64,000 nucleotides of DNA. Source: Planctomycetes bacterium UBA1662. Its GTDB lineage: Bacteria > Planctomycetota > UBA8108. The stretch lies in the NCBI GenBank assembly GCA_002320775.1, contig DCKY01000187.1:7161-71160 (forward strand). The letters are read 5' to 3'. Every line of letters begins with the position of its first letter. Positions within the stretch are counted from its first letter, which is position 1. Positions 4,548 through 61,051 of the stretch are shown piece after piece. Made by a program: the position numbers and the translations under genes. The notes beneath the pieces were generated by a model. The model saw only the letters and a list, made by a program, of their open reading frames with translations. It did no database searches and was not told where the DNA came from.

Positions 4548-4716
4548 GGTCTGGAAGTCTCCTTGCCGCCTGCTGAAGGGGCTCCCCATCCTGCGTGGGA
4601 GCGTCCGCATTTGATGGGGTATTGTAGAGCGCCGGCGGACAAAGTGGAATGGCGAAGGGCAGGGGCCAGTCCTATACTGTTCTTTCTTCGCAGCTGTTCA
4701 TTGGTCCAGGTAACGC

Positions 4717-5877
4717 ATGTCTTCGTCTTCGCCATCTTCAGACGACACAAACCGAGAGGCGGGCCGGCAGGAATTTGATCCTGACGGGCCCACCCTGATG
4801 TTGTCCTATCACGGCGCCCTGGAGCGGCAGGCGGCTCCTGCCAGGATTGCCGAGCCCAGCGAGGAGATGAGCTGGAATGCCCGCTACCGCATCCTGCGGA
4901 AGCTGGGCAGCGGCGGCCAGGGGGTCGTGTACCTGGCGCTCAGGGAGGGAGTCGATGGCTACTCGACCAAGGTCGCCATCAAGCTCTATGCCCGGGATGA
5001 GTCGGTATCTGAGTCCAGGCACCTGAAGGAGATGGAGCGCATCGCCCACCAGGGCCAGAAGATCAGCGAGATCCAGCAGGACAACCTGGTGAACATCCGT
5101 GACTTTGTCGCTTTGGAAGATACCCGGGTCATGGTCATGGAGTGGGTCGATGGATTGGATCTTCGCCAGCTTCTCGCCGCGAAGCTCTACAGGGAATCCG
5201 AGGCGCGGGTCACAAAGGCGGATTGGGACCGCCTGAACGATGTCCTGGTTTCCCCCGGGGAGGATCACTGCATGTTGAGACCCGCGGCCGCCGTCGATAT
5301 TCTGCGAGGCTGCCTCGCGGGGCTGTCTTCCCTTCATCATCACGAGATCATCCACAGCGACCTGAAACCTTCGAACATCATGATCAAGCGGACAGGTACG
5401 AAGAAGCTGATCGACATGGACTCTTCCTGCGATCGCCAGGTCGATCTGCAGGCGGAGGTTCGCGGTACACCCTATTACATGGCTCCGGAGCTGATCAGGG
5501 AGAGGGATGTGCGCTATCGCTCCGACATAGCCAGTCTTGGCTATGTGCTGATCGAGATGTTGACGGGCAAGCTGCTGTTCAAGGAATGCAAGACCCTTGA
5601 TCAACTTCTCGAGAAGAAGCTGCGTCTACCTGATGAACTGGTTGAGTATATGCCTCGGTATGACCATCTCGATCTTCGTCTCGATCTTCTCGAGCTCTGT
5701 ACGAAGATGATCGCCACTGACCCAACAGAGCGGTTTCCCGATGCCGAGACGGCCGACCTGGGAAAGCTCGGCGCCGCGAGCTTTCACCGCCAGTTGGTGA
5801 AACACGACCTCTCGGCCGAGTATTCGCGGGATCTTGGCTGGTGGATCGATCTGGTTCATCCGGCTGAGGAAGGCTAG
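4717..5877 (+). CDS. Ser/Thr protein kinase (Hanks-type) with variant catalytic motifs.
   Basis: It has a glycine-rich loop (LGSGGQGVVYLA), a VAIK lysine (KVAIKLY), HSDLKPSN in place of HRDLKPxN, DMD in place of DFG, and the APE motif (PYYMAPE). Confidence 0.8.
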   Translation: MSSSSPSSDDTNREAGRQEFDPDGPTLMLSYHGALERQAAPARIAEPSEEMSWNARYRILRKLGSGGQGVVYLALREGVDGYSTKVAIKLYARDESVSESRHLKEMERIAHQGQKISEIQQDNLVNIRDFVALEDTRVMVMEWVDGLDLRQLLAAKLYRESEARVTKADWDRLNDVLVSPGEDHCMLRPAAAVDILRGCLAGLSSLHHHEIIHSDLKPSNIMIKRTGTKKLIDMDSSCDRQVDLQAEVRGTPYYMAPELIRERDVRYRSDIASLGYVLIEMLTGKLLFKECKTLDQLLEKKLRLPDELVEYMPRYDHLDLRLDLLELCTKMIATDPTERFPDAETADLGKLGAASFHRQLVKHDLSAEYSRDLGWWIDLVHPAEEG

Positions 5878-23649: not shown

Positions 23650-26600
23650 ATGAGAGCACCGATGAAGATCTTCTGTCCTGTCGTCAGCCGGACGGCAGTT
23701 TTATTTTTTATAGCGGCTCTGCTCCTGGGCCACGCAGGCCTGCGCGCGGGTGAATTCGACATCATCATCAATGAGCTGAACTACAACGTCTTTGACAACG
23801 GCGGCGAGGACAGCCTGGAGTTCATCGAGCTCTACAATCGCGGAGGGACAGTCGTCGATCTAAGCGGCTGGGATTTCTCCCGCGGTGTGGACTTCACCTT
23901 TTCCGCGGGGACCATGGTCGAGCCAGGCGAGTATCTTGTCCTGAGTCCTGACCCTGCGGCCGCAGCGGCTCGCTATGGATTGCAGCGCGTCCTGGGACCC
24001 TATCTTGGTCAGCTGGATAATGGCGGCGAGATCCTCGAGCTTCTCAATTCGAAGGGGCAGATGATCAGCCGGGTTCATTATGACGACAGTACGCCCTGGT
24101 CAGGCCGGCCGGATGGCCGGGGGCCGTCGCTGGAGTTTACCGGCGTTGACAATGCCAATAGCCTGGCGAGAAACTGGAAGCCCAGCAAGACTCTCGGGGG
24201 AACTCCCGGACGGGTCAACTCACGCAGGGTGCTGCCCTCGCGCCTGAGCCAGCGAGGTCCGCGTCCTATCGTCTCGTCACAGGGTATCTGGAGGACTTTC
24301 GCCGGCCGCTCAAACCCTTCGGATCCGATAGATGCCTGGACCCGGCTTGACTTTGATGACGAGGATTGGGGCGAGGCCCAGGGAGGCTTCGGGTACGGGC
24401 AGCGGGTCGGCTTCAACTTTTCGACCCAGATCAGCAATATGCGCCGCGAGTTCAACACCTACTACATCCGCAGTAACTTTACAGTTACAGAGGACACCCT
24501 GGCGGCAATTACCGATGGGTCGATTGATCTCAGCCTGACAGTCTCCTATGACGATGCCTTTGTCGCCTACGTAAATGGTACGGAGGTGGCCAGGGACAAT
24601 GTTGGCGACCCCGGGGAACCGGTTGCCTTTGATGCCACCGGGGATGAGAGCCGCAACGAAACGGCTCGTGTTGAGCTCCCCGGCATTGCAGACCTCCTGG
24701 TTGAGGGCGAAAATGTTTTCGCGCTCCAGGGTGTCAATGCTACACGGAACAGCAGGGACTTCTATATCGCCGCCGATCTGCTCATGGCGGAGAACTCTCA
24801 GGATGAGAAGGAAGATGAATCGGCAAATCCCTACATCGGAAGAATTATCAACGAGCTGCTGGCCGGTGAAGGGGATGACCCGGGCTTTATAGAGCTCTTC
24901 AATCCCGAGGACGAGGAGCTCGACCTCAGCGGTAATGTCCTGCTCTCCAGTCGCGGTAATTTTCTCTACGAGATTCCCGGCGGGACCGTTCTTGCCCCGG
25001 GAGAGTTTGTAGTCTTTGACAGCAAGGTGTTGGCTCTTCCTGTTCCAGCCGGCGGCGCCCGCTATGTTCTGCTTGCGGCCGATGGCCGCACTGTTCTCGA
25101 TGACATCGATGTCGAGATCGAGACGCCTGGCCGAAGTGTGGGCCGTTTCCCTGAGGGGGATGAAGATGTCTACGTGCTGGACCAGCCGACCAACGGCGCG
25201 GCCAACACCTATGCGTACAGCTCACCGGTGGTCATCAACGAGATTCATTTTCATCCGCCCTATGTTCCCGCCGGCAAGGACTGCTCCCGACAGTGTTCGG
25301 ACGCTCGTCAGTGGGTTGAGCTGTTGAACCGCAGCGAGGAAGCTGTGGACCTTGGCGGCTGGAAGCTCACCAATGGAATCAGGTATACCTTCGAGCCCGG
25401 CACCATCCTGGCTGCCGGAGCCTACCTTGTCGTAGCCTCTTCACTGGAGGAATTTTCGGCGCTCCACGATGGTGTCGAAAATGTCGTCGGCGACTGGTCC
25501 GGGCGTCTCAACCACGCCACCGAGACGATCAACCTGCGTGATGGTCTCGGTAACCGTGTCGACAGGGTGATCTACGGAGACGGCGGCGCGAAGAATGACG
25601 AGGATCCCGATGATGGAGTGGACGATCGCACCTTCCGCGGCAGCACCTGGCCGATACTTGCGGATGGAGATGGCCCCACCATCGAACTCATCAACCCGGG
25701 CCTCGGCAACCGGGCCGGTGTTTCCTGGAGGGCCTCCAATGATGCCGGTGGAACTCCCGGTGTCCAGAACTCAGTTTTTGAGGCGGACCCCGCCCCCTCG
25801 ATCAGGTCGGTGAAGCATTCCCCCGCCGTTCCGCGCAGCGATGAGGCCGTGGTGGTGACCTGCTCGATCTCGGCTCTCGAGGCTCTGACCGAGGCCGAGG
25901 TCCAATGGTCGATAGCGGGAGGCCCCTCCGGCAACGCGAATCTTCGAGACGATGGCGCGGGTCCTGATGAGCTCGCCCAGGATGGCGTCTTCTCAGCCAG
26001 TATCCCGGCGCAGGATGATGGGGACATCGTTAGATTCTCGGTCGTTGCCGCGACTGGCGCTGGCGGCAGAGTTCGTCTGCCGCTTGAGCCGGAGGCGGAC
26101 CCTTTCCGCGGGTTCCAGGGGGTCTTCTATCTCTACGAGGTAGATAATTCGAATCCGCCGGATACCGGCGCTGCGGTCTTCCGCATCATCATGAATCCGA
26201 ACGACAGCGATGAGCTTGAGGACCGCGATGAGGACAGCAACGTTCTCCTGCCGGCGACGCTGATCTGCGATGGAGAGATCTACTATTGCGCCGGTGTTCG
26301 TTATCGAGGCGAGAACTCACGTCGATTGACCAACAAGGCCTTCAAGATCAGGCTCCCGCCGGAGAATTCCTGCAAGGGTATTGGAAATATCAATCTGCTT
26401 GCGGGTAATGGAAATGATTTCGGCACCTCGACCTTCAACGAGCTTCTCTCTTCCGATCTCTATCGAAGAGCTGGTGCGCCTTACCCCCAGGAATGGAACG
26501 CTGTCCTGCATTTTGCCGGAGTTGTGGGACGTAATTACGACACCCGCTACATTCGCAAGGAGGCCTATGACGATGACTTCCTCACGCGTTTCTTCGCCGG

Positions 26601-35330: not shown

Positions 35331-35798
35331 CTATTCGTCGAATCGGGGATCGAGCGGTTTGCGCTCTTTCTCTTCATCATCGTCATCGAGGGTTTTGATG
35401 CGAATCGGCTCCTCATCCGTGGTTTCCGCATAGTCCTTCCGCGGGTCGGCCGGTTTCTCCGAAGAGTTCGGGCCGGCGCTCAGGATGAAGAGTCCGATGA
35501 TGAGGATCGCCGCGAGGCCGGCCAGGGGAGCCAGCCAGCGCGGCCGGGAGCTGACGACAGCGAAGGGTTGGTTCGTTCCGCCCTCGCGGATTTCAGAGAG
35601 CATCTTTCGCCAGCGCTCCGCGCTGACCTCGGGCGGCCGGTCGTTTTTTGCGAGCCGGGTGAGCTCTTCCGCCTCGGCCGCCAGCTTCCGGTACTCTTCA
35701 GAGCCTGCGAGGTACCTCTCGACCGTTTCTCGCTGTTCTTCGGAGAGCTCTCCGTCGAGGTAGGGGCCCAGCAATCTGGTGAATTCTTCACGCGACAT
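35331..35798 (-). CDS. Anti-sigma factor (zf-HC2-like N-terminus lacking the Zn ligands, single TM).
   Basis: The block RLLGPYLDGELSEEQRETVERYL matches the anti-sigma N-terminal consensus. A TM helix (LAPLAGLAAILIIGLFIL) follows. The gene sits immediately downstream of the ECF sigma gene. Confidence 0.6.
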   Translation of the reverse strand: MSREEFTRLLGPYLDGELSEEQRETVERYLAGSEEYRKLAAEAEELTRLAKNDRPPEVSAERWRKMLSEIREGGTNQPFAVVSSRPRWLAPLAGLAAILIIGLFILSAGPNSSEKPADPRKDYAETTDEEPIRIKTLDDDDEEKERKPLDPRFDE

Positions 35799-35841: not shown

Positions 35842-36600
35842 TCAGCTGGGCCTGTAGCCCATGGAGCTGAGCGATTCCTGTAGTTTCTTCCGGGCGTAGA
35901 AAAGTCGAGACATTACGGTTCCAACGTTGCAACCCACGACCTCTGCAATTTCTTTGTAGGAGAGATCTTCAGATGTGTGGAGGACGAAAACAACCTGGTG
36001 TTTATCTGAGAGCGAGGAGATGGCTTGCTGCAGGTTCTCCCGGAGTTCCTGTTCCCGGGCATACTCAACCGGCGCCTGGGCCGGGGCTCTGCGAGCGGTA
36101 GGCTTTCCAAGGGCCTCCATGGCGGACTCTTCCATGCCGTGGAGGGGCCGGCTTTTGCGGCTGCGTGTAAAATCGATCGAGCGGTTGACAGTGATCCGAT
36201 AGAGCCAGGTGAAGAACTTGGAGTCGGTCTTGAATTTTTCGAGCGCCTGGTAGACACGGAGAAAAACTTCCTGCGCAACCTCGAGGGCGTCTTCCCTATT
36301 GCGTACAAAACGGAAAGAGATTCCGTAGACTCGCTGCCGGTATTTTTCGAAGAGAAATTCAAACGCGGCTTCATCGCCGGCAAGGAAGGCTTTCACCTTG
36401 AGAATGTCTTCGTTGTCGGAGGAGTCTCTCAATTTCTTTTTCCGGCGATCCAGGGCGGGTTGAATCGGGATGACAACGGCGCCACCTCGACGGAGTTCAT
36501 GGCGGACCTCCACCTCAACATGCGAGGGGGAATCAAAGGGTCCGCGCTGGCGTACCAACGTGCCGTCGATTGTAGCGGGGAGGAGTTGGGCTCTCATCAT
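35842..36600 (-). CDS. RNA polymerase sigma-70 factor, ECF subfamily.
   Basis: The region-2 block is FEFLFEKYRQRVYGISFRFVRNREDALEVAQEVFLRVYQ. The region-4 block is LSYKEIAEVVGCNVGTVMSRLFYARKKL. The N-terminal ~60 aa of the ORF may be an extension, or the true start may lie further in. Confidence 0.8.
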   Translation of the reverse strand: MMRAQLLPATIDGTLVRQRGPFDSPSHVEVEVRHELRRGGAVVIPIQPALDRRKKKLRDSSDNEDILKVKAFLAGDEAAFEFLFEKYRQRVYGISFRFVRNREDALEVAQEVFLRVYQALEKFKTDSKFFTWLYRITVNRSIDFTRSRKSRPLHGMEESAMEALGKPTARRAPAQAPVEYAREQELRENLQQAISSLSDKHQVVFVLHTSEDLSYKEIAEVVGCNVGTVMSRLFYARKKLQESLSSMGYRPS

Positions 36601-36723
36601 CTCTAATCTTTTGAAATATCAGTTCTCATTGAATACTGACGGATTTCCGCGGGTATTTATTCGATTTTCGGAAGGGGAAAATTCATCAGGGGGCCGATAA
36701 GAGATGACTCGGATCTTTTTTTA

Positions 36724-36752
36724 TTGACAGAAGGCGTACAGGCTTCTAATTT
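36724..36752 (+). promoter_or_regulatory. Canonical sigma70-type promoter: TTGACA, a 17 bp spacer, then TAATTT.
   Basis: The -35 hexamer TTGACA is at 36724..36729. The -10-like hexamer TAATTT is at 36747..36752, after a 17 nt spacer. No annotated ORF lies downstream before the terminator. Confidence 0.45.
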
Positions 36753-36758
36753 GCTTCT

Positions 36759-37139
36759 AATTAAACCGCTGCCCGAGAGGGCTAGTCAGGTTTTAGATAG
36801 AAGCGGGCTTTACTTAAGAGGAGCTTACGGCCCGTACGAAGAGAGGTTCGCGGTGGATGCGGACCCAGATAGAGAAGAAGAATAGAAGAGATGTATCCCT
36901 CGAAGACGGTTTTCACCGTCAGGGCCTGTGAGAGTGGTCGGTGGCTCGGTTCCTGGTCTCCAGTTGTAGGAGAACAGGCGCAGGCTCGAGGTGTTAGTTC
37001 ATAATCAATGTTAGTTAGATATTAGCGATTCAACCTACCCTTCCCTACACACCCCACTCGGTAGGTTCCTCCTTTTTCCTCGTTTATTTCAGACCCAAAC
37101 ACCTCCTCATCGAGTAGGGACGATGAGGAGTTTTTTATT
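36759..37139 (+). ncRNA. Candidate novel, unclassified ncRNA/sRNA of about 380 nt.
   Basis: The unit is bounded by the promoter above and the terminator at 37103..37139. No ORF of 60 aa or more lies inside. I checked by eye for RNase P, tmRNA and SRP/6S hallmarks and found none. Confidence 0.3.
37103..37139 (+). terminator. Rho-independent terminator.
   Basis: There is a perfect 10 bp stem, CTCCTCATCG / CGATGAGGAG, around an 8 nt loop, AGTAGGGA. It is followed by TTTTTTATT. Confidence 0.7.
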
Positions 37140-37211
37140 GCCCTCGTTTTTGCGGCCGGAGTTGCCGTGAGCACGAGAGGGCCTCTTTCCCGACGGTTTC
37201 CGTGGGGGTAG

Positions 37212-38687
37212 ATGATACGATACAGCCGTGGGCCAGCGGGGTTATTGCTCCGTAAACGTGGTCGAATTCTTGCGAATCCAACCCTCTGCGGAGTCCGGTG
37301 GATGCAGCTAGTGCGCCGCATAAAAGACGTCCTGTTTTCCGGTCCTCCCGAAGAGCTCACCGGTCCCAAGGGTGTCTTGGTCAAGGTTGGACGGGTGGTC
37401 TACCTCCTGGTGGGGAAATTTCGCAGGGATTTCTGTCTCGAGCGGGCGGCCAGCCTGACCTTCTATTCCATCATCTCGCTCATACCCATGACGGTGCTGT
37501 TTTTCAGCTTCGCCACCAAGTTCATGGGGGAGCGGGAGCGTATCAAGGAATGGTTTATTCTCAAGATACCGAAGCTGCTGGCGCCGGGGCAGGAAGAAAA
37601 AGTGAGCGCCTGGCTCAAGGAAGACATCGGCAGCGATGCCTTCCAATTGCCGGAGGACGCCAGCTGGCTGATGGATTTCACCGCTGTCTGCGGACTGGTC
37701 ATCATTTCGCTGGGAATATTCATCGCGGCCGAGAGGGTCTTCAACCACATCTGGCAGGTGGACAAGCGCAGGAACTATCTACAGCGGCTATTGGTTTTCT
37801 GGGTGATCCTGACGACGAGCCCTCTGCTTTTTGGAGCATCCCTCTGGGCTGAGGATATGTTGCCCACCGGCAGCCTGAAGTCTTTTTTCCAGGATTCACC
37901 ATACTTCGCGGCCTTTCTGGCCTTTCTCGCCTTTACCCTGCTGTACATCTTTATGCCGGCAACGAAAGTTCGGTTCCGCAGCGCCGTGGTCGGAGGGATC
38001 GTGGCCGCGATCCTCTGGCAGCTGGCCAAGTACGGCTTTCTCTACTACCTCGACCAGATTAATAACGTCACGAGGTTTTATAATAAGATCGCCGCCCTGC
38101 CGCTCTTTCTCATCTGGCTCTACGTTACCTGGATGGTGGTTCTCTGCGGCGCGCAGCTCAGCTTTGTTCATCAGAATCTTGCCGCCTTATCGCGAGCCAG
38201 GCGGACTCGTTTGGCTAGCGGAAAACGATCCCTCGCGCAGCTAGGCCTGCAGCTTCTCTACAGGGTCGGGGCCGCCTTCAGCTCCGGCGGCAAGGTCCCA
38301 TCTCTGGAGGCGGTGGCTACTGACCTCGGCCTCGAGGACAGCGAAGGTCTCGCAGAGGCCGCGTCTGTCCTGCTTCAGCAGAATGTATTATTAGGGGATG
38401 GATCGGGCGACGGCGGCTATGCCCTGGCGCGGGATCCGTCCCATATACGGCTCAAGCAGGTCATGGCGGGATTGCGAAAAGCTGAGTTTCCCGGAGAGAA
38501 GAACACGGTCGAATCGTCGGCTGGGAGTGATCGTGACCGGCCAGGCATCAACCGGCTTATCGCCTCGGCAAACGTTTCCTGGGAGGACACCTTCGAGTCT
38601 TTTACTCTGGCTGATATGCTGCCTTTAGAAGGGAAAAAGGCAGGATCGCAAATCATTTCTGTAGAACAAGATAGAGAGTCCGACTGA
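37212..38687 (+). CDS. YihY/BrkB family membrane protein with a C-terminal cytoplasmic extension.
   Basis: It has ERAASLTFYSIISLIPMTVLFFS and six TM helices typical of YihY. The C-terminal extension of about 190 aa is of unknown family. The likely start is the internal MQLVRRIKD. Confidence 0.75.
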   Translation: MIRYSRGPAGLLLRKRGRILANPTLCGVRWMQLVRRIKDVLFSGPPEELTGPKGVLVKVGRVVYLLVGKFRRDFCLERAASLTFYSIISLIPMTVLFFSFATKFMGERERIKEWFILKIPKLLAPGQEEKVSAWLKEDIGSDAFQLPEDASWLMDFTAVCGLVIISLGIFIAAERVFNHIWQVDKRRNYLQRLLVFWVILTTSPLLFGASLWAEDMLPTGSLKSFFQDSPYFAAFLAFLAFTLLYIFMPATKVRFRSAVVGGIVAAILWQLAKYGFLYYLDQINNVTRFYNKIAALPLFLIWLYVTWMVVLCGAQLSFVHQNLAALSRARRTRLASGKRSLAQLGLQLLYRVGAAFSSGGKVPSLEAVATDLGLEDSEGLAEAASVLLQQNVLLGDGSGDGGYALARDPSHIRLKQVMAGLRKAEFPGEKNTVESSAGSDRDRPGINRLIASANVSWEDTFESFTLADMLPLEGKKAGSQIISVEQDRESD

Positions 38688-38724
38688 TTAATTTTGACAT
38701 GATACTCAATGCCCAATTACTATC

Positions 38725-41700
38725 TTGGTTTCAGAAAAGAATCAGGAAGACAAACAAGTGATAAAGTCAGGAACCGGGCACGAAGCAACAGGCCCATTTC
38801 CATTTCCTTCTAGTTTCCAGTTTCGCGAAGCTGAAAAGGCCACGCTCGAAGCTTTTTTCGAGAAGGTGTTTTTCGCTCAGTGCTTTACTGACGAGAAGCT
38901 CAAGGCCATCGATCGCATGCGCTGGAGGCCTGGGAAGGCCGAGTCGACTGAAGAGGTTGAGGCCGTCGAAAAGAGTTCGGAGGCCGCTCCGGACGCATCT
39001 TCCGAGGATGTTTCGTCTGTTGAGAAGCGGCCGGTTGTGGCCACTCCTTATGTCATGCTCTGCCGCGGGGCGGATGGCATAGGGAAGACGCGAATCTTTC
39101 GCCACCTGCGCGAGCGTGCCCAGGAAAAAGAAGTTTCGGTTTACGAAACACACAATTACGAGGTCGAGGGGATCCCGCTCAAGCCCTTCCTCCATACGAT
39201 TCGACGGATCATGCGCGACCTTGACGACAAGTCGGGTCTCGGCCAGGCGAATCAACGAGTCGGCTCGTCGCTGATCAACCGCTACCGCCATGCGCTCGAA
39301 AGTCTGATTCCCGAAGCTTTCGGCGATGTCGGGGCTTCCGCCGAGAATAGCTTGCTCAATTCAGAGAATTGGGAGGACGAGAAGGTTCGGATTTTTGATG
39401 GCATCACCCAATTCCTCCTCGAGGTTTCGGTCCACAAGCCCCTGCTGATCCTGGTTCACGACCTGCATTGGGCTGACAGAGCGACGGTCGAGCTGCTCAG
39501 GTATATCGGGCGCAATCTTCAGCTGAGAAACGAGGCCCTGTCGGCGGAGCATTCTTCGGCGGAAGGAGTCGATGCGGAGCAGGTAACCGAAGATTGGGAG
39601 AGACTCTCGGTTCACACAGATCTTGCCGCTGCCGAGACAGGCCAACTGGAAAAAGCCGAAGCAGTTGCGGGCGACGAAGAGAGCCCCCCTGAGACCTGGC
39701 CTTCCCGGTTGATGCTGCTTGCGAACTATCGCTCAGTTGATGAAGACTCAGGCGGAGAGAGCGACCGCGCCATCGAAAGCCTCGGGCGGGAGGACTTCAG
39801 CTTTCACGGTGAGCTTCGGCCTCTGCATCGGCAGGAGGCGCGGTATTTTCTCGAGAAGTCAATCGAGGGAGTCCAGGTGGGAGGTGAGGGGCTGGAGATC
39901 ACAGCCGACGCGGCGGATGCGGTGTTTGAATTATCCGAAGGGTTTCCGAGCTTTCAGCAGGAGCTGTTCCGGGGAGTTTTCCTGGGCAAGTCGAACCTCG
40001 CCTGCTGGAGCAGTGAGAGCTTCAGGGAATACGTTGACAGCGCTACCGGCGCGGGCGGTCTCGAATTATTAGAAGATGCTCCCGCGCGTCATCGTATCCT
40101 GGTGCGCCGCCTTGAAGATTATTTCTCTTCGGGCGAACAAGGGCGTTTGTCCAATGAGGCCCGGGTTCTGCAGGTCCTGGCCCTGGCCCGTCGGCCCGTG
40201 AGGAGTGACCTGGTGGGTCATGTCCTTGCATTGCAGGAGACCGCCTCCGGTGACGCCGAAGAGATGGCCGCGGCGACCGGCAAGCTCGGCCGCTTTTCAA
40301 ACGCCGAGGGAACCGAGAAGGTCGAGGCGATCCTGAGAACTCTCGAGCAGCGTGGAATCACAGCCCTCGCGAGCCCGGGAAAGTATTATTTCAGGCTTTG
40401 GGATTACACCCAGGTCGTGGAGGCGACGATTGAGCCCGAGGTCAGGACGCTCATTCATCAACGAATTGGTGAGGAATACAGGAGGCGTCTCGGCGAGGGA
40501 AACGGTGAGACCATCTCTACAGGCGAGGAGGTCTACGAGGTCTATCATCATCTCAGCCGGGGCAAGGAGTCATCCTCGGCGATGGAATTCGGTCTCGCGG
40601 CTGGGAATCGCTTTGAGCGGACCTTCGCGCTTCAGAAGGCGAGAGACCTCTATACCGAGATGGTCTCCCTTCTCACGGCGGAGGAAGAGCTGCCGGAGCG
40701 CCTGACGGTTCTCGGGCACCTGGCCAGGGTCCAGGCCACCCTTCGTGAACACGATGGCGCTCTTGAATCGCTCACGAGAATCAACCAGGAGGAGGCGGGC
40801 AGCCTGGAGCCTGCCGTCCGGATTAATCTCTACCTTCTGGAGGCCCAGGTGGTTGCCGCCGCTGATCCAGGCAGGGCGCTCAAGGTCCTGGCCAGGGCGC
40901 AGAAGATCGTAACCGAGGAGCAGAGTATCGAGTCGATCAGGGTCCAGCTTGAGGTGACCCGCTGCAGGATGCTGCGGCAGGACTGGAAGCGGACCATCAA
41001 TTACGGGCTCAAGGGCGCGGAGCAGGCGCAGAAGATTCCTGGCTGCGTCGAGCTGGGTATGTTCTATCGTTATGTCGCCCTCGCCTTTTACCGCAAGGGT
41101 GATTACGCCCACTCCCTCGATAATTTCCAGAGGGGTCTCGCTGTTGCTGAAGATCTCCAGAATTACTCCCTCACGGTGAACATCCTGGATGACCTGGGAA
41201 GGGTTTATCTCGAGAGGGGAAATCACTTCCGTGCCGCGCGGTACCTCTACAAGGCCCTCGAGATGCGTCAGCGGCAGCAGGATGTCGCCGGTCTCTGCAA
41301 ATCGTATGACCAATTGGGGCTGGTCTACCGCCGTGATGGTGACTACCACAAGACGATCGACAATCTCAGCCGCAGCCTGAACCTCAAGCTTCGAACGGGT
41401 GATTTCGAGGGACTCAACCCGACGCTGGGAACCCTGGGGGATCTTTGTTTCCGCCTGGGAAATTACCAGGTTGCTATCGATTATTTCAGCAAAGAGGTTG
41501 AGAACAGCAAGAAGGTCAAGGAGATCGAGGCCGATGAGACCGGGGGCCTCGCGGATGCCTTCGTGCGGATGGGACGTGTCTACTTTGAGATCGGCGATCT
41601 GAAGCAGGCGGATAAATTCTGCAAGCAGGTCCTGATCCTCGCCTCCGAGTTTCAGCTGAAATCGTACGAGGCCGATGCGCTGATGCTGGATGGAAACATC

Positions 41701-43464
41701 AAGGCTTACCAGCTCGACTGGAATCTCGCGGAGAAGAGCCTCAAGCAGGCGGCTGATTTCTATGGGAAGCTCGGTCATAGAATTCGCCAGGCCTGCGCTC
41801 TGCTTGACCTGGCCGAGGCGAAACTCGCCCGTGAATATTACGCCGAGGCTCTCAAGCTCGCCTCCAGGGCCCAGGTGATAGCCGAGGATGTAAGGGCTCT
41901 CGATGTTCAGGTGCGAGTCCTGACGGTTAAGGGGAACGTTCACAGGCACCTCAAGGGTGGAAATCCCGAGAAGGTTCGCGAGCAGCTCGGCAAGGCGATC
42001 GAGCTGAGTCAGAGGCTGAGCGATATCAGGGTTCTCTTCGACCTTTACTACGCGCTGGCAAAGGTCCATCACACAGACCGTGAGTTTTCCGAGGCCGCAA
42101 CCTATTACGGTAAGGCGGATGCGATCATTAAGCGGATCACTGAGCAGATGCCCGAGGAGCTGCGCTCCAGGTTCTCCGATGATCCCCGGCGCAAGATCTT
42201 CGTGGAGGATTTTCTCCGCTTTCAGAAGGAATCTGAGGCGAAGGGGCCGACCCTCGAGGGCCGTGACCGGACGGCATCCCACGGAGATCTCAGGGAGCGT
42301 CCGGTGGGCTCCGATGATTACAAGGGCTTGCTGGAAAGCGTACTCTCGATCAATAGCAGGATGAACCAGCTGGACTTCCACCAGGCCTGTCTTGACGAGG
42401 CCCTGGAGCTGACCGGGGCCGAGCGCGGCCTCATCATGGTGGTTAATGAGCGTCAATACGCGACCGTAGCTTCAGAAGGCTTTGGAGATGACTTTGCCGC
42501 ACATCCAGAGGCCTCCTCGGCGAGCCAGCTTGCCGAAGAGACCATTCGCCGCGGCCGCGGGTCTTACAGCAGCGGCGGTGAAGAGGAAGGTCACGGCAAG
42601 ATGAGGCCCCTCAAGGTCCTGCGGGACCGCTCCGTTCTCGTGATCCCCCTGAAGACGGAGGACAGGGTCCTTGGCAGCATCTATCTCGACCGGCTGAACT
42701 CTCTGGGTTCTTTTACTCCCAGGCACCAGGTGCTGCTGGAGGCCTACGCTCTCCAGGTCGCTGTCGTTCTTCAGAACCGCCGCCAGCTTGATGTGGCGAT
42801 CCGTGAGCCGGTCACGGGGTTTTATACGCCCAGCTACTTCCTTGACCGTCTCCGCGATGAATACAGGCTCTTCAATCTGCATGACAAGTCCTTCTGCCTG
42901 GCGGGCTTCTATCTTCCCGTGCTTGAAGATTCCGTGGGGGAGACCCAGAGCGGTCTCGGGGACAAGCTGGCAAAAGAGATTGCCTCGGTCGCCAGCGGAG
43001 CGATCGTTTGCTGGGGTAACCCGGTTCTCTACCTGCTCTTTCGGGATACAGACCTGGGTATCGCGGAGCAATACACCATCAGGGTACAGGAGAGACTGCA
43101 GGACCTGCTCGGCGAGGATGTTCCCTACGAGGCGCTACCGGTCGAGCGCCGCTACCAGCTGGGTTCGGATATTTATTTTGATCTGCGCCGCAAGCTGCTT
43201 CCCGAAGAGTGCGATCACAAGACGCTCACGGATCTTCGCCAGATCCTCGCCAAGGATGTAAAGCTCAAGGAGGCCAAGAAAATCCTGGAGCGCCAGATTA
43301 TCGAGAGCACCCTGCGTAAGACCAACGGCAACATCACCCATGCCGCGCGGGAGCTGGGAATCCATCGTCCCCAGCTCTCCAACTATCTGAAGAAATACGG
43401 ACTGAACAAAGAGCGCTTCGAGAGCTCGATTGACACCTCACGCATCTCCCCGATAGAGAACTGA
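38725..43464 (+). CDS. Giant cytoplasmic regulator (1579 aa): P-loop NTPase (AAA/STAND-like), TPR array, GAF, degenerate GGDEF, Fis-type HTH.
   Basis: It uses a TTG or nearby start. The Walker A is GADGIGKTRIF. Multiple TPR repeats include YAHSLDNFQRGLAVAED and YHKTIDNLSRSLNL. The GAF domain is LELTGAERGLIMVV...VLVIPLK...LGSIYLDR. The GGDEF-like domain starts EPVTGFYTPSYFLDRL, but carries VCWGNP in place of RYGGEEF. The C-terminal HTH is ITHAARELGIHRPQLSNYLKKYGL. Confidence 0.8.
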   Translation: MVSEKNQEDKQVIKSGTGHEATGPFPFPSSFQFREAEKATLEAFFEKVFFAQCFTDEKLKAIDRMRWRPGKAESTEEVEAVEKSSEAAPDASSEDVSSVEKRPVVATPYVMLCRGADGIGKTRIFRHLRERAQEKEVSVYETHNYEVEGIPLKPFLHTIRRIMRDLDDKSGLGQANQRVGSSLINRYRHALESLIPEAFGDVGASAENSLLNSENWEDEKVRIFDGITQFLLEVSVHKPLLILVHDLHWADRATVELLRYIGRNLQLRNEALSAEHSSAEGVDAEQVTEDWERLSVHTDLAAAETGQLEKAEAVAGDEESPPETWPSRLMLLANYRSVDEDSGGESDRAIESLGREDFSFHGELRPLHRQEARYFLEKSIEGVQVGGEGLEITADAADAVFELSEGFPSFQQELFRGVFLGKSNLACWSSESFREYVDSATGAGGLELLEDAPARHRILVRRLEDYFSSGEQGRLSNEARVLQVLALARRPVRSDLVGHVLALQETASGDAEEMAAATGKLGRFSNAEGTEKVEAILRTLEQRGITALASPGKYYFRLWDYTQVVEATIEPEVRTLIHQRIGEEYRRRLGEGNGETISTGEEVYEVYHHLSRGKESSSAMEFGLAAGNRFERTFALQKARDLYTEMVSLLTAEEELPERLTVLGHLARVQATLREHDGALESLTRINQEEAGSLEPAVRINLYLLEAQVVAAADPGRALKVLARAQKIVTEEQSIESIRVQLEVTRCRMLRQDWKRTINYGLKGAEQAQKIPGCVELGMFYRYVALAFYRKGDYAHSLDNFQRGLAVAEDLQNYSLTVNILDDLGRVYLERGNHFRAARYLYKALEMRQRQQDVAGLCKSYDQLGLVYRRDGDYHKTIDNLSRSLNLKLRTGDFEGLNPTLGTLGDLCFRLGNYQVAIDYFSKEVENSKKVKEIEADETGGLADAFVRMGRVYFEIGDLKQADKFCKQVLILASEFQLKSYEADALMLDGNIKAYQLDWNLAEKSLKQAADFYGKLGHRIRQACALLDLAEAKLAREYYAEALKLASRAQVIAEDVRALDVQVRVLTVKGNVHRHLKGGNPEKVREQLGKAIELSQRLSDIRVLFDLYYALAKVHHTDREFSEAATYYGKADAIIKRITEQMPEELRSRFSDDPRRKIFVEDFLRFQKESEAKGPTLEGRDRTASHGDLRERPVGSDDYKGLLESVLSINSRMNQLDFHQACLDEALELTGAERGLIMVVNERQYATVASEGFGDDFAAHPEASSASQLAEETIRRGRGSYSSGGEEEGHGKMRPLKVLRDRSVLVIPLKTEDRVLGSIYLDRLNSLGSFTPRHQVLLEAYALQVAVVLQNRRQLDVAIREPVTGFYTPSYFLDRLRDEYRLFNLHDKSFCLAGFYLPVLEDSVGETQSGLGDKLAKEIASVASGAIVCWGNPVLYLLFRDTDLGIAEQYTIRVQERLQDLLGEDVPYEALPVERRYQLGSDIYFDLRRKLLPEECDHKTLTDLRQILAKDVKLKEAKKILERQIIESTLRKTNGNITHAARELGIHRPQLSNYLKKYGLNKERFESSIDTSRISPIEN

Positions 43465-56620: not shown

Positions 56621-59600
56621 TCAACTCAGCAGGGGACCGTCGAGACCTTTTTCTTCCAGCGGCTCCTCGAAACGAATGGAGTATTGGCCAGGCGCCTTGC
56701 GGGCAATCACCCTGGCGCGGATCTTCGTATCCGACTCAGCGAGAACGATCTTGAGGTCCTGTCCGGGGAGCAGGTCCTGCTTCGTGGAGACCATGGCGCC
56801 GTTGCGGCTGACGTTGACAACCATGGCCTCGAGGATCTCATCCTGCCTGAGAAGGGAGGCCCGCAGCCTGGGCTGGACGGTTCCGCCGGTGTTGGCATTG
56901 GCCAGCAGCTCGATTCCTCCATCCTGGTGCATTCGGACCAGGTCGCCGGTTTTGATACTGCTGGTGGCGTTCTCGACGCCAACGATCGCCGGAACGTTGA
57001 TCTCTCTGGCGAGGATCGCGGCATGGCTGAGCCGTCCGCCGACCTCGGTGATCAGGCCGGCCGCGCGGCTGAAGACGGGGGTCCAGGATGGATCGGTAAA
57101 CCTTGCGACCAGGATCTCGCCATCCTTGAACGATTCTATCTCCGCTGGGCTGTTCAGTACGCGGGCGGCTCCCAGCGCCCAGCTGTCACCGGCAACGACC
57201 AGCCCCTTGAGGTCGGCGGAGCTGGTTCGGAGCTGTTCGGATGCCGGGGCGGGATCGAGTTTTTCAAGGTCGGTCATGGAGAGCTTCGTCTTCAGGGTGA
57301 TTTTTGAGAAGAGCTCGCCTTCTTTCAGGCGTTTCGAGGCGAGGGCTCGCAGCGGGGCGCTCGCGGCAGCGGCATCGATGCCGTCGAGCTCTTCAAGCTT
57401 AAGCTGGAAGATCTTTCCATCCATCTCGAGGCGGTTGTCGAGCTCCAGCAGCAACCGGCGCAGGAGTGCGAACTCGCGCAGGCAGTGATGCTTCGCCTCC
57501 TCCTTGAGGCTCTGGAACTGGCTGGCCCGCTCGGCAGCTATCGAGGCGATGGAAGATGATGCCTCCCGGGCCTTGTTCCCGGTGCTGAAGGGGGAGTGGT
57601 CTTCGCTGGAGGCCATCTCCACCAGGCCGGCTAGCAGCGCCGGGTCTTCATTGTAGCGTGGGCTCGAGAGCTCATAGTCATGGATGGATCGATGGCCGTA
57701 GAGTTCGATGAAATCAGCGGAATCACGTTCGCCGCGCTTGATCGCGGGAAGCAGCTCAAGGGCTTGCCGGACGATGGTTTGCGGACCTTCTGGAAGCACC
57801 GGTACCTTGCCGCGGATTGCGCGTTCAGCCGAGCGCATGTAGAAATCCGCCGCGATGTTGATCAGCTCAACCTGGACATGTGTTCGTGTCCGGAGGTCCT
57901 CGCGCCATTGCCTGAAGAGTTCCAGCAGCTCAGATGTTTCGAGCCGGGACAGATCGATGGCTTCGCGTATTTTGAGCTCACGCAGGTACCCGGGGAGGAA
58001 GCCTTCCTGGTAGTTCTGCTTGAGCCTCCAGGCATCCCGGGTGAGGCGGAAGGAGGCGATAAGACCGGGTCCGCTTGCCGAGCGCCTCTTCTCCACCGGG
58101 CGGTTGATATAGAGGTGTCCGAATACCGAGATCAGCAGCTCGGCCCCCTCTTCCTCCGCCTCGTAGGGGATGCCGAGGATTCTGCAGGCAAGGTCTGTGC
58201 TGCCGCCAGGTTCCCAAAGCGATCGCATGAGGGAGAGGCTCAGGGGGGTAGGGCGGGGGAGCAGCTCGGACAGCTCGTTCTGGTAGAGGGCCGTTCCGGA
58301 TTCTTCCGGGGCTCCACTTTCCACAGCCAACTCGAGCAGGCGTCTGCGCTCGATCTCGAAGGCGGCCTGCGGCTTGCCTTCATGTTCGTTCGAGAGCCGG
58401 GTGGTTACGTCTCGGGCCTGGAGAATGGTGAACTCCCCGTCCCGGCAGGCCCACTCGATATCCTGCGGAGTTCCGAAGAGCTCTTCGATTCGGGTGCCGA
58501 GCTCGATCAGCGGAGTGAGATCGAGCGGGGAGCAATGTTTATCGAGCTTACGTCCGCTGAAGCGGCCGTAACGGAACGAGGATGGGTTGGCGGCGCCGCT
58601 GACAAGCGCCTCGCCAAGACCCTCGACCATTTCAACAAGCATGCTCCCCGTCTCTCTCGGGTGCTCGGTAAAGAGCACCCCGGCGTATTCGGCGGGAACC
58701 ATCTTCTGGACGATGATCCCGCCTCGCTCCCCGGCCCCGAGGCCGTAGGAACTCACCCGTCCACCGTTTATTGACTCTTTGACCTTCTTGATGGCCGCGC
58801 CGAGCTTCTTCCATTCGACGTTCAGAACGGAGTCGAAGATGCCCGCGTAGCTCTTGTCGGAGCCGTCTTCGTTCAGGCCCGAGCTGCGCACGGCGGCTTT
58901 ATCGATGTCGGCCTCTTTCCATGCCGCCTCAAGCTCTCGCAGCAGCGAGGGCTCCAGCTTCATGTCCTGGCCGAGACTCTCGAGTAATTTCGCGCTCAGC
59001 ACAAAACCTCCCGGAACCGGGAGTCCCGCCCGGATCATGATGCCCAGGCGGGCGGCCTTATTTCCGCAGCCGCCGTGATGGGGGCAATCGGAAAGCCTGA
59101 CCATCGCACCATTGTCTTCTTCGTTCGTTGCGGAAGCGCTTTCCTGGTTGCCTGATCCGGGTGTGTCGAGGACCGTCGCGATCAGCAGGGTCTGGAGCAG
59201 CCCGGTGCCGATGCTGAGAACGAGATAGAAGTTTACGGCGGCGCTGAAGTTGTAGCTGATGGCGCAGAGCAGGACGGCGAGGGCGGAGCCTGTCAGCAGC
59301 CTTTTCCTTCTCGAGCCGCCCGCGCTCAGAACAACGTGCGCCAGCACCGCCGCGCCCAGGCAGATCGGGAGGGCCAGGAGAGGGTCGGGAGCCGAGAGAT
59401 CTGGTATCCATCCGAGGGCATCATTATTCGAGGACCCTATGGCGGTGATCGCGTTGCAGAACAGCAGCATCAGGAAGACCTGCAGGCCTGTGGCCAGGAG
59501 GTTGCGCACCGGAGTGATTCCGTGCTTCTTACGCAGGGAGTTGATGGCTCGCAGGAGCCGGTCGGGGTCATCCGCCAGCTTCTTCTTCAGCCTGGAGATT

Positions 59601-61051
59601 TTCGGCTCGAGCTTCCTGGCGAGGGCCTGGTCTTTTTCGGTTTTCAGCGCCAGGGGCAGCAGCAGGACTCTCAGCAGCAGGACACTGAGGATGATAGCAA
59701 TCGCTAGGTGACCGAAGAGTTCACGCAGCCACCCAAGGGTGATTTTGAATGGAGTCGAGAGGTAGCCGAGGAGGTCTCCACGCTGGGCCTGCTGCCATTG
59801 CAGCACATGCGGCCTGGCAGAGCTCGCCGGGAAGAACTCGTGAGGAACGGTATAGCGTCCGACGAACTCGTGCCCCCGACGACTCAGCTTGAGTCCCATC
59901 ACCTGGGCGTAAAACGAGCTGCGCTTGTCGTAGCACGGAATGATGATGGGGGTCTCGTAGGGAACCCGGGTGTCGAGAATGTTTTCGAGTTCGGCGGTCG
60001 TCATCTTTCGGATGGGAATGTTGATGGCGTCCGGCAGGCTTCCCTGCTCGAAGTCGGCTGCATAGCGAACGTCGACAAAAACGGCTCCGCTGGAGCCGAC
60101 GAGCTCTTCGACGGCCGACGTGTCAAGAAGCTTGTTCTTGTTGGTGAAGCCGGGGAGTCCACGCAGCGTTTTCACTCTTTTTCCGTTGGGCTGCAGGAGA
60201 GGGTAGCCCTCGGCTATCCATTTCTCATAGCCGCCTACCAGGAACCGGCATTCGTATCCAAGCTTCTTGAACTCTTCACAGAGCTCGGAGCTGCGATTGC
60301 CTGAATAGCACAGCAGGACTGACGAGGTTTCCTTTCCAGGGAGCTGCCCCGGGTCGTCCCTGAGATCAGGATAGCGTATTGCGAGAGATCCCCTGATCGA
60401 CCCCATCTCGATCTCTTCGGACTCGCGCACATCGATCAGGACGGGTTTCGAATTCTTCAGCAGTCCGGCGAGCTCTCCAGTGCTGATTCCGAGGGAGTGC
60501 GCCTGTTGCTGGCTGAAGGACAGCGTCCTCAGGTCGCTGTCTTCCTTGGTCGCTCCATTTTCTATCGAGGGCCGCAGCAGGTTTCTTCCCAGGCGTTCAT
60601 TGTCCTGGTCGACCGTTCTGCAGTATTGGAGGATGTTGGCCGTGATCGAAACAACGAACAGCGCCAGGAGGATCTTCAGAGCCCAGGATGGTACCCCGGT
60701 TTTCAGACCCGCATTTTCACCCGCAAGGTGATTGCGGCGGCGCTTATGAGCGAAAAGAATCCCTCCGGCCGAGACCGCGAGAAGGCCCAGGATCTGGCCG
60801 ACGCTGGCGAAAATACCGATGACCACATCAGGCGAGGGTATGGCCAGCAGGGGACCGCCGAGAAAGAGATTCAGCGCCAGCGCCCATACGATCGTCCAGC
60901 TGCCGAGGCCATCGAGAACCCGCGGCCCGGCGCTCTCTCGCGCGGGATGCTTCACCGATGTTGTATTGAGGGCCGCTTCAGTCAAGGTCGCACCTTTGAT
61001 CCAAGGCCCGGGAGTCCAGTGCCTTCCAGGCACGTCCTCGAGCTCCCGCAT
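56621..61051 (-). CDS. Giant membrane fusion protein (1476 aa): N-terminal TM segment, 2x rhodanese, YidC/Oxa1 insertase core, PEP-synthase-like ATP-grasp (PPDK_N-like), PEP-utilizers His swivel domain, C-terminal PilZ.
   Basis: Rhodanese loops are LLCYSGNRS and IIPCYDKRSS. The YidC blocks are LLLPLALKTEKDQALARKLEPKISRLKKKLADDPDRLLRAINSLRKKHGITP and ALGWIPDLSAPDPLLALPICLG. The E. coli YidC equivalents are LLPL..KQ..S..KMQ..QPKI..L..KYKDDPQ...KLYKE.GVNP and [20 protein letters not shown]. The PPDK_N-like blocks are GGCGNKAARLGIMIRAGLPVPGGFVLS and SGLNEDGSDKSYAGIFDSVLNV. The PEP-utilizers His block is GGRLSHAAILAREINVPAIVG. The PilZ-like tail is ASLLRQDEILEAMVVNVSRNGAMVS...IRARVIARK. Confidence 0.8.
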   Translation of the reverse strand: MRELEDVPGRHWTPGPWIKGATLTEAALNTTSVKHPARESAGPRVLDGLGSWTIVWALALNLFLGGPLLAIPSPDVVIGIFASVGQILGLLAVSAGGILFAHKRRRNHLAGENAGLKTGVPSWALKILLALFVVSITANILQYCRTVDQDNERLGRNLLRPSIENGATKEDSDLRTLSFSQQQAHSLGISTGELAGLLKNSKPVLIDVRESEEIEMGSIRGSLAIRYPDLRDDPGQLPGKETSSVLLCYSGNRSSELCEEFKKLGYECRFLVGGYEKWIAEGYPLLQPNGKRVKTLRGLPGFTNKNKLLDTSAVEELVGSSGAVFVDVRYAADFEQGSLPDAINIPIRKMTTAELENILDTRVPYETPIIIPCYDKRSSFYAQVMGLKLSRRGHEFVGRYTVPHEFFPASSARPHVLQWQQAQRGDLLGYLSTPFKITLGWLRELFGHLAIAIILSVLLLRVLLLPLALKTEKDQALARKLEPKISRLKKKLADDPDRLLRAINSLRKKHGITPVRNLLATGLQVFLMLLFCNAITAIGSSNNDALGWIPDLSAPDPLLALPICLGAAVLAHVVLSAGGSRRKRLLTGSALAVLLCAISYNFSAAVNFYLVLSIGTGLLQTLLIATVLDTPGSGNQESASATNEEDNGAMVRLSDCPHHGGCGNKAARLGIMIRAGLPVPGGFVLSAKLLESLGQDMKLEPSLLRELEAAWKEADIDKAAVRSSGLNEDGSDKSYAGIFDSVLNVEWKKLGAAIKKVKESINGGRVSSYGLGAGERGGIIVQKMVPAEYAGVLFTEHPRETGSMLVEMVEGLGEALVSGAANPSSFRYGRFSGRKLDKHCSPLDLTPLIELGTRIEELFGTPQDIEWACRDGEFTILQARDVTTRLSNEHEGKPQAAFEIERRRLLELAVESGAPEESGTALYQNELSELLPRPTPLSLSLMRSLWEPGGSTDLACRILGIPYEAEEEGAELLISVFGHLYINRPVEKRRSASGPGLIASFRLTRDAWRLKQNYQEGFLPGYLRELKIREAIDLSRLETSELLELFRQWREDLRTRTHVQVELINIAADFYMRSAERAIRGKVPVLPEGPQTIVRQALELLPAIKRGERDSADFIELYGHRSIHDYELSSPRYNEDPALLAGLVEMASSEDHSPFSTGNKAREASSSIASIAAERASQFQSLKEEAKHHCLREFALLRRLLLELDNRLEMDGKIFQLKLEELDGIDAAAASAPLRALASKRLKEGELFSKITLKTKLSMTDLEKLDPAPASEQLRTSSADLKGLVVAGDSWALGAARVLNSPAEIESFKDGEILVARFTDPSWTPVFSRAAGLITEVGGRLSHAAILAREINVPAIVGVENATSSIKTGDLVRMHQDGGIELLANANTGGTVQPRLRASLLRQDEILEAMVVNVSRNGAMVSTKQDLLPGQDLKIVLAESDTKIRARVIARKAPGQYSIRFEEPLEEKGLDGPLLS
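56624..56956 (-). other. PilZ-like domain at the C-terminus of the giant fusion protein.
   Basis: It has an RxxxR-like segment (LRRQDE) and D/SxSxxG-like segments (NVSRNGAMV), with beta-barrel periodicity. Confidence 0.45.
59176..59779 (-). other. YidC/Oxa1/SpoIIIJ insertase core domain inside the giant fusion protein.
   Basis: See the motif comparison to E. coli YidC TM2-TM3 given for the parent CDS. Confidence 0.65.

Follow-up and report, generated by a model that had tools for sequence, protein, structure and literature searches.

The DNA analysed here is a 64,000-nt stretch (the window) of contig DCKY01000187.1, positions 7,161 to 71,160 of the forward strand, from assembly GCA_002320775.1 of Planctomycetes bacterium UBA1662. 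Our subjects are a gene in it for a 1579-aa protein, probably a STAND-type transcription regulator, and a structured RNA motif that is conserved upstream of that gene. The original prediction, made from the sequence alone, had read the gene as encoding a single chain in which a STAND-type P-loop NTPase is joined to a long array of tetratricopeptide repeat (TPR)-like units, a GAF domain, a GGDEF-derived domain lacking the GG(D/E)EF active site, and a Fis-type helix-turn-helix (HTH) unaccompanied by a sigma54 AAA+ domain. This architecture is borne out in every part. The open reading frame (ORF) is genuine: some 39 full-length homologues align with it from end to end at 39-94% identity (search of 5.8 billion proteins), and the predicted domains were recovered by Pfam, by profile searches or by fold comparison. 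The features of the regulator are:

38725..43464 (+): regulator ORF, 1579 aa (ORF call, homologue conservation)
38797..38874 (+): conserved N-terminal peptide FPFxxSFQFRxxE...LEAxFExVFF, residues 25-50 (family alignment)
39037..40524 (+): predicted STAND nucleotide-binding oligomerisation module (NOD), about residues 105-600 (Pfam AAA_16, motifs, AlphaFold2, Foldseek)
39067-39090 (+): Walker A GADGIGKT (motif)
39442-39477 (+): Walker B-like LLILVHDLHWAD, residues 240-251, with His in place of the first acidic residue (motif)
residues 280-322 (+): disordered acidic insert in the nucleotide-binding domain (NBD)
39706-39732 (+): sensor-1-like RLMLLANYR (motif)
40531..42294 (+): TPR-like helical repeat sensor region, about residues 603-1190 (Pfam TPR_12, TPR_2, TPR_8 and TPR_1; AlphaFold2 helices; alignment with the Acidobacteriota protein P0040)
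42382..42774 (+): GAF domain, residues 1220-1350 (Pfam GAF_2, GAF_3 and GAF; profile matches to DevS/DosT GAF domains in the PDB; fold matches)
42787..43197 (+): degenerate GGDEF-fold domain, about residues 1355-1491 (family profile, AlphaFold2 model, Foldseek)
42805-42840 (+): EPVTGFYTPSYF in the GGDEF-like domain
43012-43029 (+): WGNPVL, holding G-N-P-V-L (residues 1431-1435), the equivalent of GG(D/E)EF (alignment)
43285..43398 (+): Fis-type HTH (HTH_8), residues 1521-1558 (Pfam; profile matches to Fis, ZraR and NtrC in the PDB)
43327-43383 (+): HTH stretch GNITHAARELGIHRPQLSN, near-invariant, paralogues included

The N-terminal part is matched by Pfam AAA_16 (residues 110-268, E 2e-15). 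When residues 100-700 were modelled with AlphaFold2 (predicted local distance difference test score, pLDDT, 79; predicted template modelling score 0.81), Foldseek returned, in this order, PH0952 (6mfv), CED-4, Cdc6/Orc1, MalT (8bob, template modelling score, TM, 0.61 on the target) and NLRs; phmmer of the N-terminus against the PDB gave no match, and the homology was recovered by the fold search. As modelled, the N-terminal module is thus a STAND NOD of the MalT/AAA_16 kind, with the NBD-helical-winged-helix fold followed by a repeat sensor. The Walker A motif (RG-x-x-G-[IVM]-GKTR) is invariant across 40 sequences, and the sensor-1-like RLM[IL]LANYR, placed after the acidic insert, keeps its Arg. 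The AAA_16 signature hhhhDDLHWAD reads LLILV-H-D-LHWAD in the family, with His, or Gln in two sequences, at the first acidic position of all of about 40 members, and P0040 has Glu-Asp at these positions. On sequence grounds, the His in Walker B suggests that nucleotide is bound but hydrolysed slowly or not at all.

Downstream of this module, TPR_12 and other TPR models cover roughly residues 740-1150 (best E 2e-25, for TPR_12), and some 14-17 TPR-like repeats can be estimated from the length of the region. The C-terminal third carries GAF_2 (residues 1220-1350, E 1.5e-11) and HTH_8 (PF02954; residues 1521-1558, E 1.9e-11), the latter containing a GNIT[HR]AAxxLGIHRPQLS segment that is near-invariant in orthologues and in paralogues only 25-29% identical over the aligned C-terminal segment containing the HTH. 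The Pfam scan of the regulator found neither Sigma54_activat (PF00158) nor GerE, that is, not the C-terminal LuxR/GerE-type HTH by which the LAL/MalT family is recognised, and both PF00158 and GGDEF (PF00990) are absent from all of the roughly 39 full-length homologues. NCBIfam matches were partial and confined to TPR proteins, to NtrC-family C-terminal HTHs and to the AAA_16 segment of TOMM kinase/cyclase proteins.

The domain between GAF and HTH is not matched by Pfam GGDEF, even when the isolated 162-aa region was searched at E<=10. A family profile of residues 1195-1579 built from 26 members does match solved GGDEF domains, namely those of SiaD (7e6g, E 8.7e-6), DgcR (6zxb/6zxc, about 2e-5) and, among degenerate ones, FimX (3hva, 1e-3); the same profile also matches GAF domains and the HTHs of Fis, ZraR and NtrC. 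An AlphaFold2 model that includes the domain (pLDDT 81) was paired by Foldseek with the GAF(-PHY)-GGDEF cyclases 5llw and 4zmu (DcsbiS), with PelD (4etz, 4euv) and with the FimX GGDEF domain (3hva; TM 0.66, root-mean-square deviation 3.8 Å). Alignment with HMMER, in which no intact GGDEF motif appears, sets (W)GGEEF against (W)G-[NSAT]-[PS]-[VIL]-L, so that the A-site is lost, and DPLTGLPNRR against EP[LV]TGFYTPS, in which the guanine-contacting Asn has become Thr. The D-x-D-x-F-K metal-site segment is deleted or shortened to '(F/Y)LPxLE', with an invariant 'LP', and the position of the RxxD inhibitory site (I-site) is not conserved: in none of 38 members does an RxxD lie within 16 residues upstream of the motif. 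Judged by their residues, the classes needed for a cyclase, for a GTP binder and for an I-site receptor of cyclic di-GMP (c-di-GMP) are therefore all gone from this domain. Distant paralogues have GGDHL or LGDS[TV] at the GG(D/E)EF position, intermediates between GGDEF and GNPVL that support descent from a true GGDEF domain. With a mean column conservation of 0.78 over residues 1351-1400, the domain is strongly conserved, a sign of selection for some function.

Translation of the regulator starts at TTG 38725 or at GTG 38758, and several homologues open at the equivalent of the GTG ('MIKSG'). A promoter-like TTGACA-18-TACTAT lies ahead of the start, at 38694-38723. The peptide at residues 25-50 has no match to a known family; since it is conserved family-wide, translation must begin upstream of residue 25. 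All of the roughly 39 homologues come from metagenomes or metagenome-assembled genomes (MAGs), and the few that bear a source name are labelled 'tetratricopeptide repeat protein' or 'GAF domain-containing protein' and belong to Planctomycetota. Among GTDB species representatives the C-terminal module was found only in MAGs of uncultured Planctomycetota (UBA1146, UBA8108 and others), recovered from marine, groundwater and sediment samples. In an exhaustive HMMER search of 1.84e9 cluster representatives, the complete GAF-pseudoGGDEF-HTH module was present in just about 15 clusters, the other matches among 306 at E<=1e-30 being poly-GAF proteins. A search with the alignment of the GGDEF-like domain and HTH returned fragments only, with no relatives joining an intact GGDEF to HTH_8. 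The family is rare and lineage-restricted.

The second subject of this study lies upstream of the regulator, from which it is separated in the window by a gene for a membrane protein. Neither this RNA nor the conserved ECF sigma factor/BrkB surroundings had been picked up in the original prediction. The features of this region are:

37032..37140 (+): structured RNA motif, about 107 nt (alignment, covariation, covariance model)
37032-37039 with 37060-37067 (+): stem P1 (32-sequence alignment)
37042-37048 with 37114-37120 (+): loop-loop pseudoknot, P1-loop UCCCUAC with P2-loop GUAGGGA (32-sequence alignment)
37088-37100 (+): invariant segment UUCAGACCCAAAC
37103-37112 with 37121-37130 (+): stem P2, followed by a U-run (32-sequence alignment)
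36724..36752 (+): conserved promoter-like TTGACA-N17-TAATTT, about 300 nt 5' of the RNA motif (visual inspection of the alignment; below the scan threshold)
37212..38687 (+): BrkB/YihY-family membrane protein with an Rrf2-like C-terminal extension, directly 5' of the regulator (conserved neighbour)
35842..36600 (-): ECF sigma factor, divergent from the RNA-BrkB-regulator unit (conserved neighbour)
35331..35798 (-): zf-HC2 anti-sigma factor, downstream of the ECF sigma factor

The motif appears in an alignment of the ECF-BrkB intergenic region from eight loci, whose flanking proteins are 56-96% identical to those of the window, as a block of roughly 100 nt with 100% identity, closed off by a terminator-like hairpin and T-run. 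With a single exception, every orthologous locus carries this block, 84-100% conserved, ahead of BrkB or, in loci that lack BrkB, ahead of the regulator, and a related copy lies directly upstream of paralogous regulators that have no BrkB or ECF neighbour. Its single strands are CU-rich, and P2 with the U-run after it gives the motif a terminator-like 3' end. In the 32-sequence alignment 99% of the cells are paired, compared with 38-50% in slid-partner controls. Compensatory changes occur in six pairs, one of them in the pseudoknot (CCCUGC with GCAGGG in L021), and the many G-U pairs are compatible with the plus strand only. P1 and P2 are predicted independently by RNAalifold. Rfam 15 gave no match at gathering score in the window and none at E<=1 in 36550-37260, and ARAGORN found no tRNA or tmRNA; tmRNA, 6S RNA, SRP RNA, RNase P RNA and known riboswitches were considered as its identity and rejected on these grounds.

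A covariance model built from the 32-sequence alignment placed the motif ahead of each planctomycete paralogue that has enough flanking sequence, on the strand of the regulator, with 10 loci outside the seed among them (51-99 bits), and did not find it in 27 non-planctomycete HTH_8 loci. When metagenomes were scanned for the RNA pattern alone, 44 contigs were obtained, and in 37 of them BrkB and/or the regulator or a paralogue follows directly downstream. Four more are too short downstream and have an ECF gene upstream. The three exceptions are L110, in which nothing was recognised in only 909 bp of downstream sequence, and L096 and L111, in which the motif precedes a class I S-adenosylmethionine methyltransferase gene and P2 has an entirely different sequence that is still paired. 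A canonical TTGACA-17-TACAAT promoter is present about 45 nt upstream of the motif in L096 and L111.

In the paralogue loci a second conserved block with covarying short hairpins occupies the 85-140 nt between the RNA motif and the Shine-Dalgarno sequence and start codon (GGAGG-ATG), so that these loci carry a long structured 5' leader. This block (CACCGTT..CTTTACGG and CGATAnCCTATCCGTCAGGATTnnTTACGG) was seen in L031 (6690-6770), L034 (5890-6020), L041, L043 and other paralogue loci. Lineage-specific tandem repeats also occur in the leader or intergenic sequence, with GAGGAACTCAGTGTTT present about 6 times in L048 (approximately 5700-5840) and a 45-nt duplicated insert in L014 (approximately 4560-4610). 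In the window locus, the stretch from the terminator to the ATG of BrkB showed no promoter-like site, a point in favour of a cis element of the attenuator type. Most probably the RNA is either a cis-acting structured leader or attenuator of the RNA-BrkB-regulator unit, or a small RNA linked to the regulator. Literature searches found neither the regulator architecture nor the RNA motif described.

The genes around the unit are arranged in a constant order, in which an rluD-like pseudouridine synthase gene, two hypothetical genes, the zf-HC2 anti-sigma factor and the ECF sigma factor are read leftward, divergent from BrkB/YihY and the regulator. The order of ECF sigma factor, BrkB and regulator recurs wherever an orthologous locus has sufficient flanking sequence, in at least 17 species representatives with identities as low as 39%, and also in a distant group, L027/L029, that is 28-30% identical in the C-terminal module; BrkB is absent in L005 and L121. 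Genes for a PIG-L deacetylase, an NAD-epimerase and an MsbA-like ABC exporter are frequent downstream. The neighbourhood looks like a vertically inherited, envelope-related one rather than a defence island, and it is suggestive of functional linkage between the regulator and its ECF and BrkB neighbours. The C-terminal extension of BrkB has a match to the Rrf2 winged helix (residues 388-470, E 9e-7), and a weak match was also obtained for the BrkB neighbour in L006. The BrkB gene always directly precedes the regulator gene. Farther away, the PilZ-containing giant protein to which the original prediction had drawn attention is indeed present, at 56621..61051 (-): it has 1476 aa and an unusual architecture of two Rhodanese domains, a YidC/60KD_IMP-like membrane segment, PPDK_N, a PEP-utilizers mobile domain and a C-terminal PilZ domain. 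Another large protein, of 1949 aa and encoded at 23650-29499 (+), contains three lamin-tail (LTD) domains, a CotH kinase and a NosD/beta-helix and is not a PilZ protein; an LTD-CotH-NosD protein is also found beside the equivalent neighbourhood in L002.

Taken together, we consider it probable that the gene encodes a MalT-like, signal-integrating transcription regulator of the STAND type, a reading that follows from the fold matches of the NOD to PH0952, CED-4 and MalT, from the invariant Walker A motif and from the conservation of the sensor-1 Arg and of the Walker B-like segment. By analogy with the mechanisms described for MalT, PH0952 and AfsR (PMC4381067, PMC6468293, PMC10936776), the resting NOD would be closed and autoinhibited by its arm and the TPR array, as in MalT and PH0952. 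Binding of an inducer at the TPR array, of a small ligand in the GAF pocket, or both, might release this autoinhibition, upon which the NOD would open in a nucleotide-dependent manner and multimerise. Multimerisation would bring together the GAF-pseudoGGDEF-HTH arms, in which the long C-terminal helix of the GAF domain and the pseudo-GGDEF domain may act as a non-enzymatic dimerisation and transducer unit, as the corresponding parts do in GAF-GGDEF cyclases. Once paired, the HTH_8 domains could bind DNA and control promoters of the sigma70 or ECF type with no remodelling of sigma54. Targets of the regulator would probably be local, namely the divergent ECF sigma/anti-sigma operon and the RNA-BrkB-regulator unit to which it belongs, and would point to functions in the cell envelope.

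A broader proposal, which we hold tentatively and at somewhat less than even confidence, is that regulator and pseudoknotted RNA form one module, inherited and duplicated together, in which an undescribed leader (a riboswitch-like attenuator, or a protein-binding RNA or operator) controls, or is recognised by, the STAND-GAF-pseudoGGDEF-HTH family of marine Planctomycetota. If true, this would link a new RNA class to STAND transcription factors of a new class, equipped with a Fis-HTH and independent of sigma54. Several observations weigh against our main interpretation, the MalT-like regulator with its upstream RNA. The evidence is computational throughout, and the gene is carried by no cultured organism. 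The Mg-coordinating Asp of Walker B is replaced by the conserved His, and the ATPase cycle may consequently differ from that of MalT. Among orthologous loci with flanking sequence, L026 (43% identity) alone has no RNA motif upstream of BrkB (covariance model, E<=0.01), and in an organism of 40% GC the motif is present (L096 370-500 and L111 5375-5505, the same region) with no regulator within 9 kb. When the 250 nt upstream of the RNA motif were compared among 42 non-redundant loci, no shared inverted repeat or k-mer stood above shuffled sequences. Finally, the housekeeping genes rluD-like and rsmD-like share the synteny, so part of the conservation may reflect vertical inheritance rather than functional linkage.

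It could also be that the HTH_8 recognises the invariant unpaired sequences of the leader, either as a DNA operator or as RNA, and that the motif serves as an autoregulatory platform with one recognition code for the paralogues. This seems unlikely to us, even though the HTH stretch stays near-invariant in paralogues whose C-terminal identity has fallen to 25-29%, the leader segments UUCAGACCCAA[AG]C and UCCCUAC/GUAGGGA hardly vary among the same orthologues and paralogues, and motif and regulator gene are always adjacent on the same strand. Many of the conserved HTH_8 residues (GN, AA, LGI, R, L) are shared by the Pfam family at large, no repeated half-site or shared palindrome was found, and the G-U pairs and compensatory changes show that an RNA structure has been selected, for which a pure DNA operator would have no need. 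Lower still do we rate the possibility that the degenerate GGDEF domain serves as receptor of c-di-GMP (by way of an I-site) or of GTP, which would make the protein a c-di-GMP-responsive transcription factor in which a domain like those of PelD, PopA or FimX is fused to an HTH. The original prediction had leaned this way, and the resemblance of the GAF and degenerate GGDEF folds to PelD and to the FimX GGDEF domain, together with the high conservation of the domain, speaks for it. However, that prediction assumed that the I-site had been kept, and the sensor reading lost its support once RxxD proved absent from 38 of 38 members, with the guanine-binding Asn replaced by Thr, the DxD segment deleted and GNPVL at the active-site motif. 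Nor does the surrounding DNA lend weight to it: a motif scan of all ORFs in the window found no GG(D/E)EF and three loose EALxR or HD-GYP pattern matches, none of them credible, so that no diguanylate cyclase or phosphodiesterase motif is in evidence, and the suggested enrichment of the locus in c-di-GMP-linked regulation comes down to a single PilZ domain, part of an unrelated multidomain protein at a distance of 13 kb.

A role as a component of a sigma54 system, in which the HTH would tether the protein to enhancer sites while a separate AAA+ enhancer-binding protein or other partner does the remodelling, is very improbable in our estimate. HTH_8 is typical of sigma54 activators, and the closest complete architecture, that of P0040, is a sigma54 activator; but HTH_8 is present in sigma54-independent proteins too, including Fis itself. 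Neither Sigma54_activat nor a GAFTGA motif is found in the regulator or its roughly 39 homologues, and inspection of the leader sequences by eye, with no formal scan, revealed no -24/-12 promoter. Sigma54 regulons as such have been reported in Planctomycetota (PMC12316311), which would be in keeping with such a role. The combination of a STAND NTPase with TPRs is moreover a common defence architecture, and Avs4 appears at rank 27 among the weak fold matches, yet the idea that the protein is an Avs-like antiphage sensor rather than a housekeeping regulator is the most remote of those considered and was rejected: PADLOC returned generic TPR and HTH matches only, and neither Avs nor any further defence STAND, the gene, present in one copy, keeps its synteny and is vertically conserved beside housekeeping genes and not in a variable island, and its effector is an HTH instead of a nuclease or protease. 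The STAND-type transcription regulator thus stays the preferred reading of the gene.

As a protein, the regulator is a STAND transcription factor with a pseudo-GGDEF domain, a variation on known kinds, and the RNA motif is the more novel element. Supported by covariation, without a match in Rfam and located upstream of at least three paralogous groups of regulators, the motif could define a new class of cis-regulatory RNA. The protein for its part indicates that the STAND-TPR-GAF scaffold, elsewhere fused to a sigma54 AAA+ domain, can carry a catalytically and allosterically dead GGDEF domain before a Fis-type HTH. It would offer a concrete case of a pseudo-enzyme domain used as a signal-transducing spacer, and of HTH_8 employed outside sigma54 control. 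For annotation, the lesson is that a 'degenerate GGDEF' is not to be equated with a 'c-di-GMP receptor' unless the I-site has been checked. Conserved, syntenic and single-copy in an uncultured planctomycete lineage of the deep ocean and groundwater, and located beside an ECF sigma/anti-sigma pair and envelope-related genes, the regulator is a candidate master regulator of envelope physiology.

Among characterised systems, the regulator shares with MalT and the other LAL proteins, and with PH0952 (6mfv), an AAA_16-type NOD (NBD, helical domain, winged-helix domain) followed by a TPR-type sensor, and MalT/LAL proteins likewise end in a C-terminal DNA-binding domain; paralogues and homologues of the regulator match TPR_MalT. 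Unlike MalT/LAL proteins, it has a Fis-type HTH_8 in place of LuxR/GerE, a GAF and a pseudo-GGDEF domain between sensor and HTH, His-Asp instead of Asp-Asp/Glu in Walker B, and a 40-aa acidic insert in the NBD. AfsR (SARP-NOD-TPR) is another transcription factor built on a STAND NOD and TPRs, and it acts on sigma70-type promoters (PMC10936776); its DNA-binding SARP domain is N-terminal, however, and it has no GAF, GGDEF or HTH_8 domain. With PelD, FimX, PopA and GAF-GGDEF cyclases such as DcsbiS (4zmu) and the phytochrome-diguanylate cyclase 5llw, the regulator has in common the arrangement of GAF, helix and GGDEF fold. A degenerate A-site is found in the regulator as in PelD, FimX and PopA, whereas the cyclases keep GG(D/E)EF; PelD and PopA retain the RxxD I-site, in contrast to the regulator, which has neither RxxD nor a membrane anchor and whose output is an HTH.

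Regulators of the NifA/FhlA type (GAF-AAA+-HTH_8) likewise have a GAF sensor ahead of their central domain and end in a C-terminal Fis-type HTH, but their central domain is the sigma54 AAA+ with its GAFTGA motif, where the regulator has a GGDEF fold. The best matches outside the family are P0040 and P0041, uncharacterised proteins from Acidobacteriota MAGs with the architecture Pkinase-AAA_16-TPR-GAF-Sigma54_activat-AAA_lid-HTH_8. Regulator and P0040 are collinear, AAA_16 lying at residues 105-264 and 314-464 and the HTH at 1522-1560 and 1690-1728, respectively, and the TPR and GAF regions align continuously over 609 residues (784-1360 with 831-1392) at 22% identity. P0040 and P0041 have an N-terminal Ser/Thr kinase that the regulator lacks; the sole internal difference from P0040 is that the latter has a sigma54 AAA+ module (1411-1655) where the regulator has its pseudo-GGDEF domain (1361-1491). 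Given the sigma54 regulons reported in the phylum (PMC12316311), loss of the sigma54 module is specific to the regulator and not forced by its phylum. The regulator is therefore best described as a domain-swap variant of the uncharacterised scaffold that these proteins represent, a STAND enhancer-binding protein, without the means to act on sigma54.

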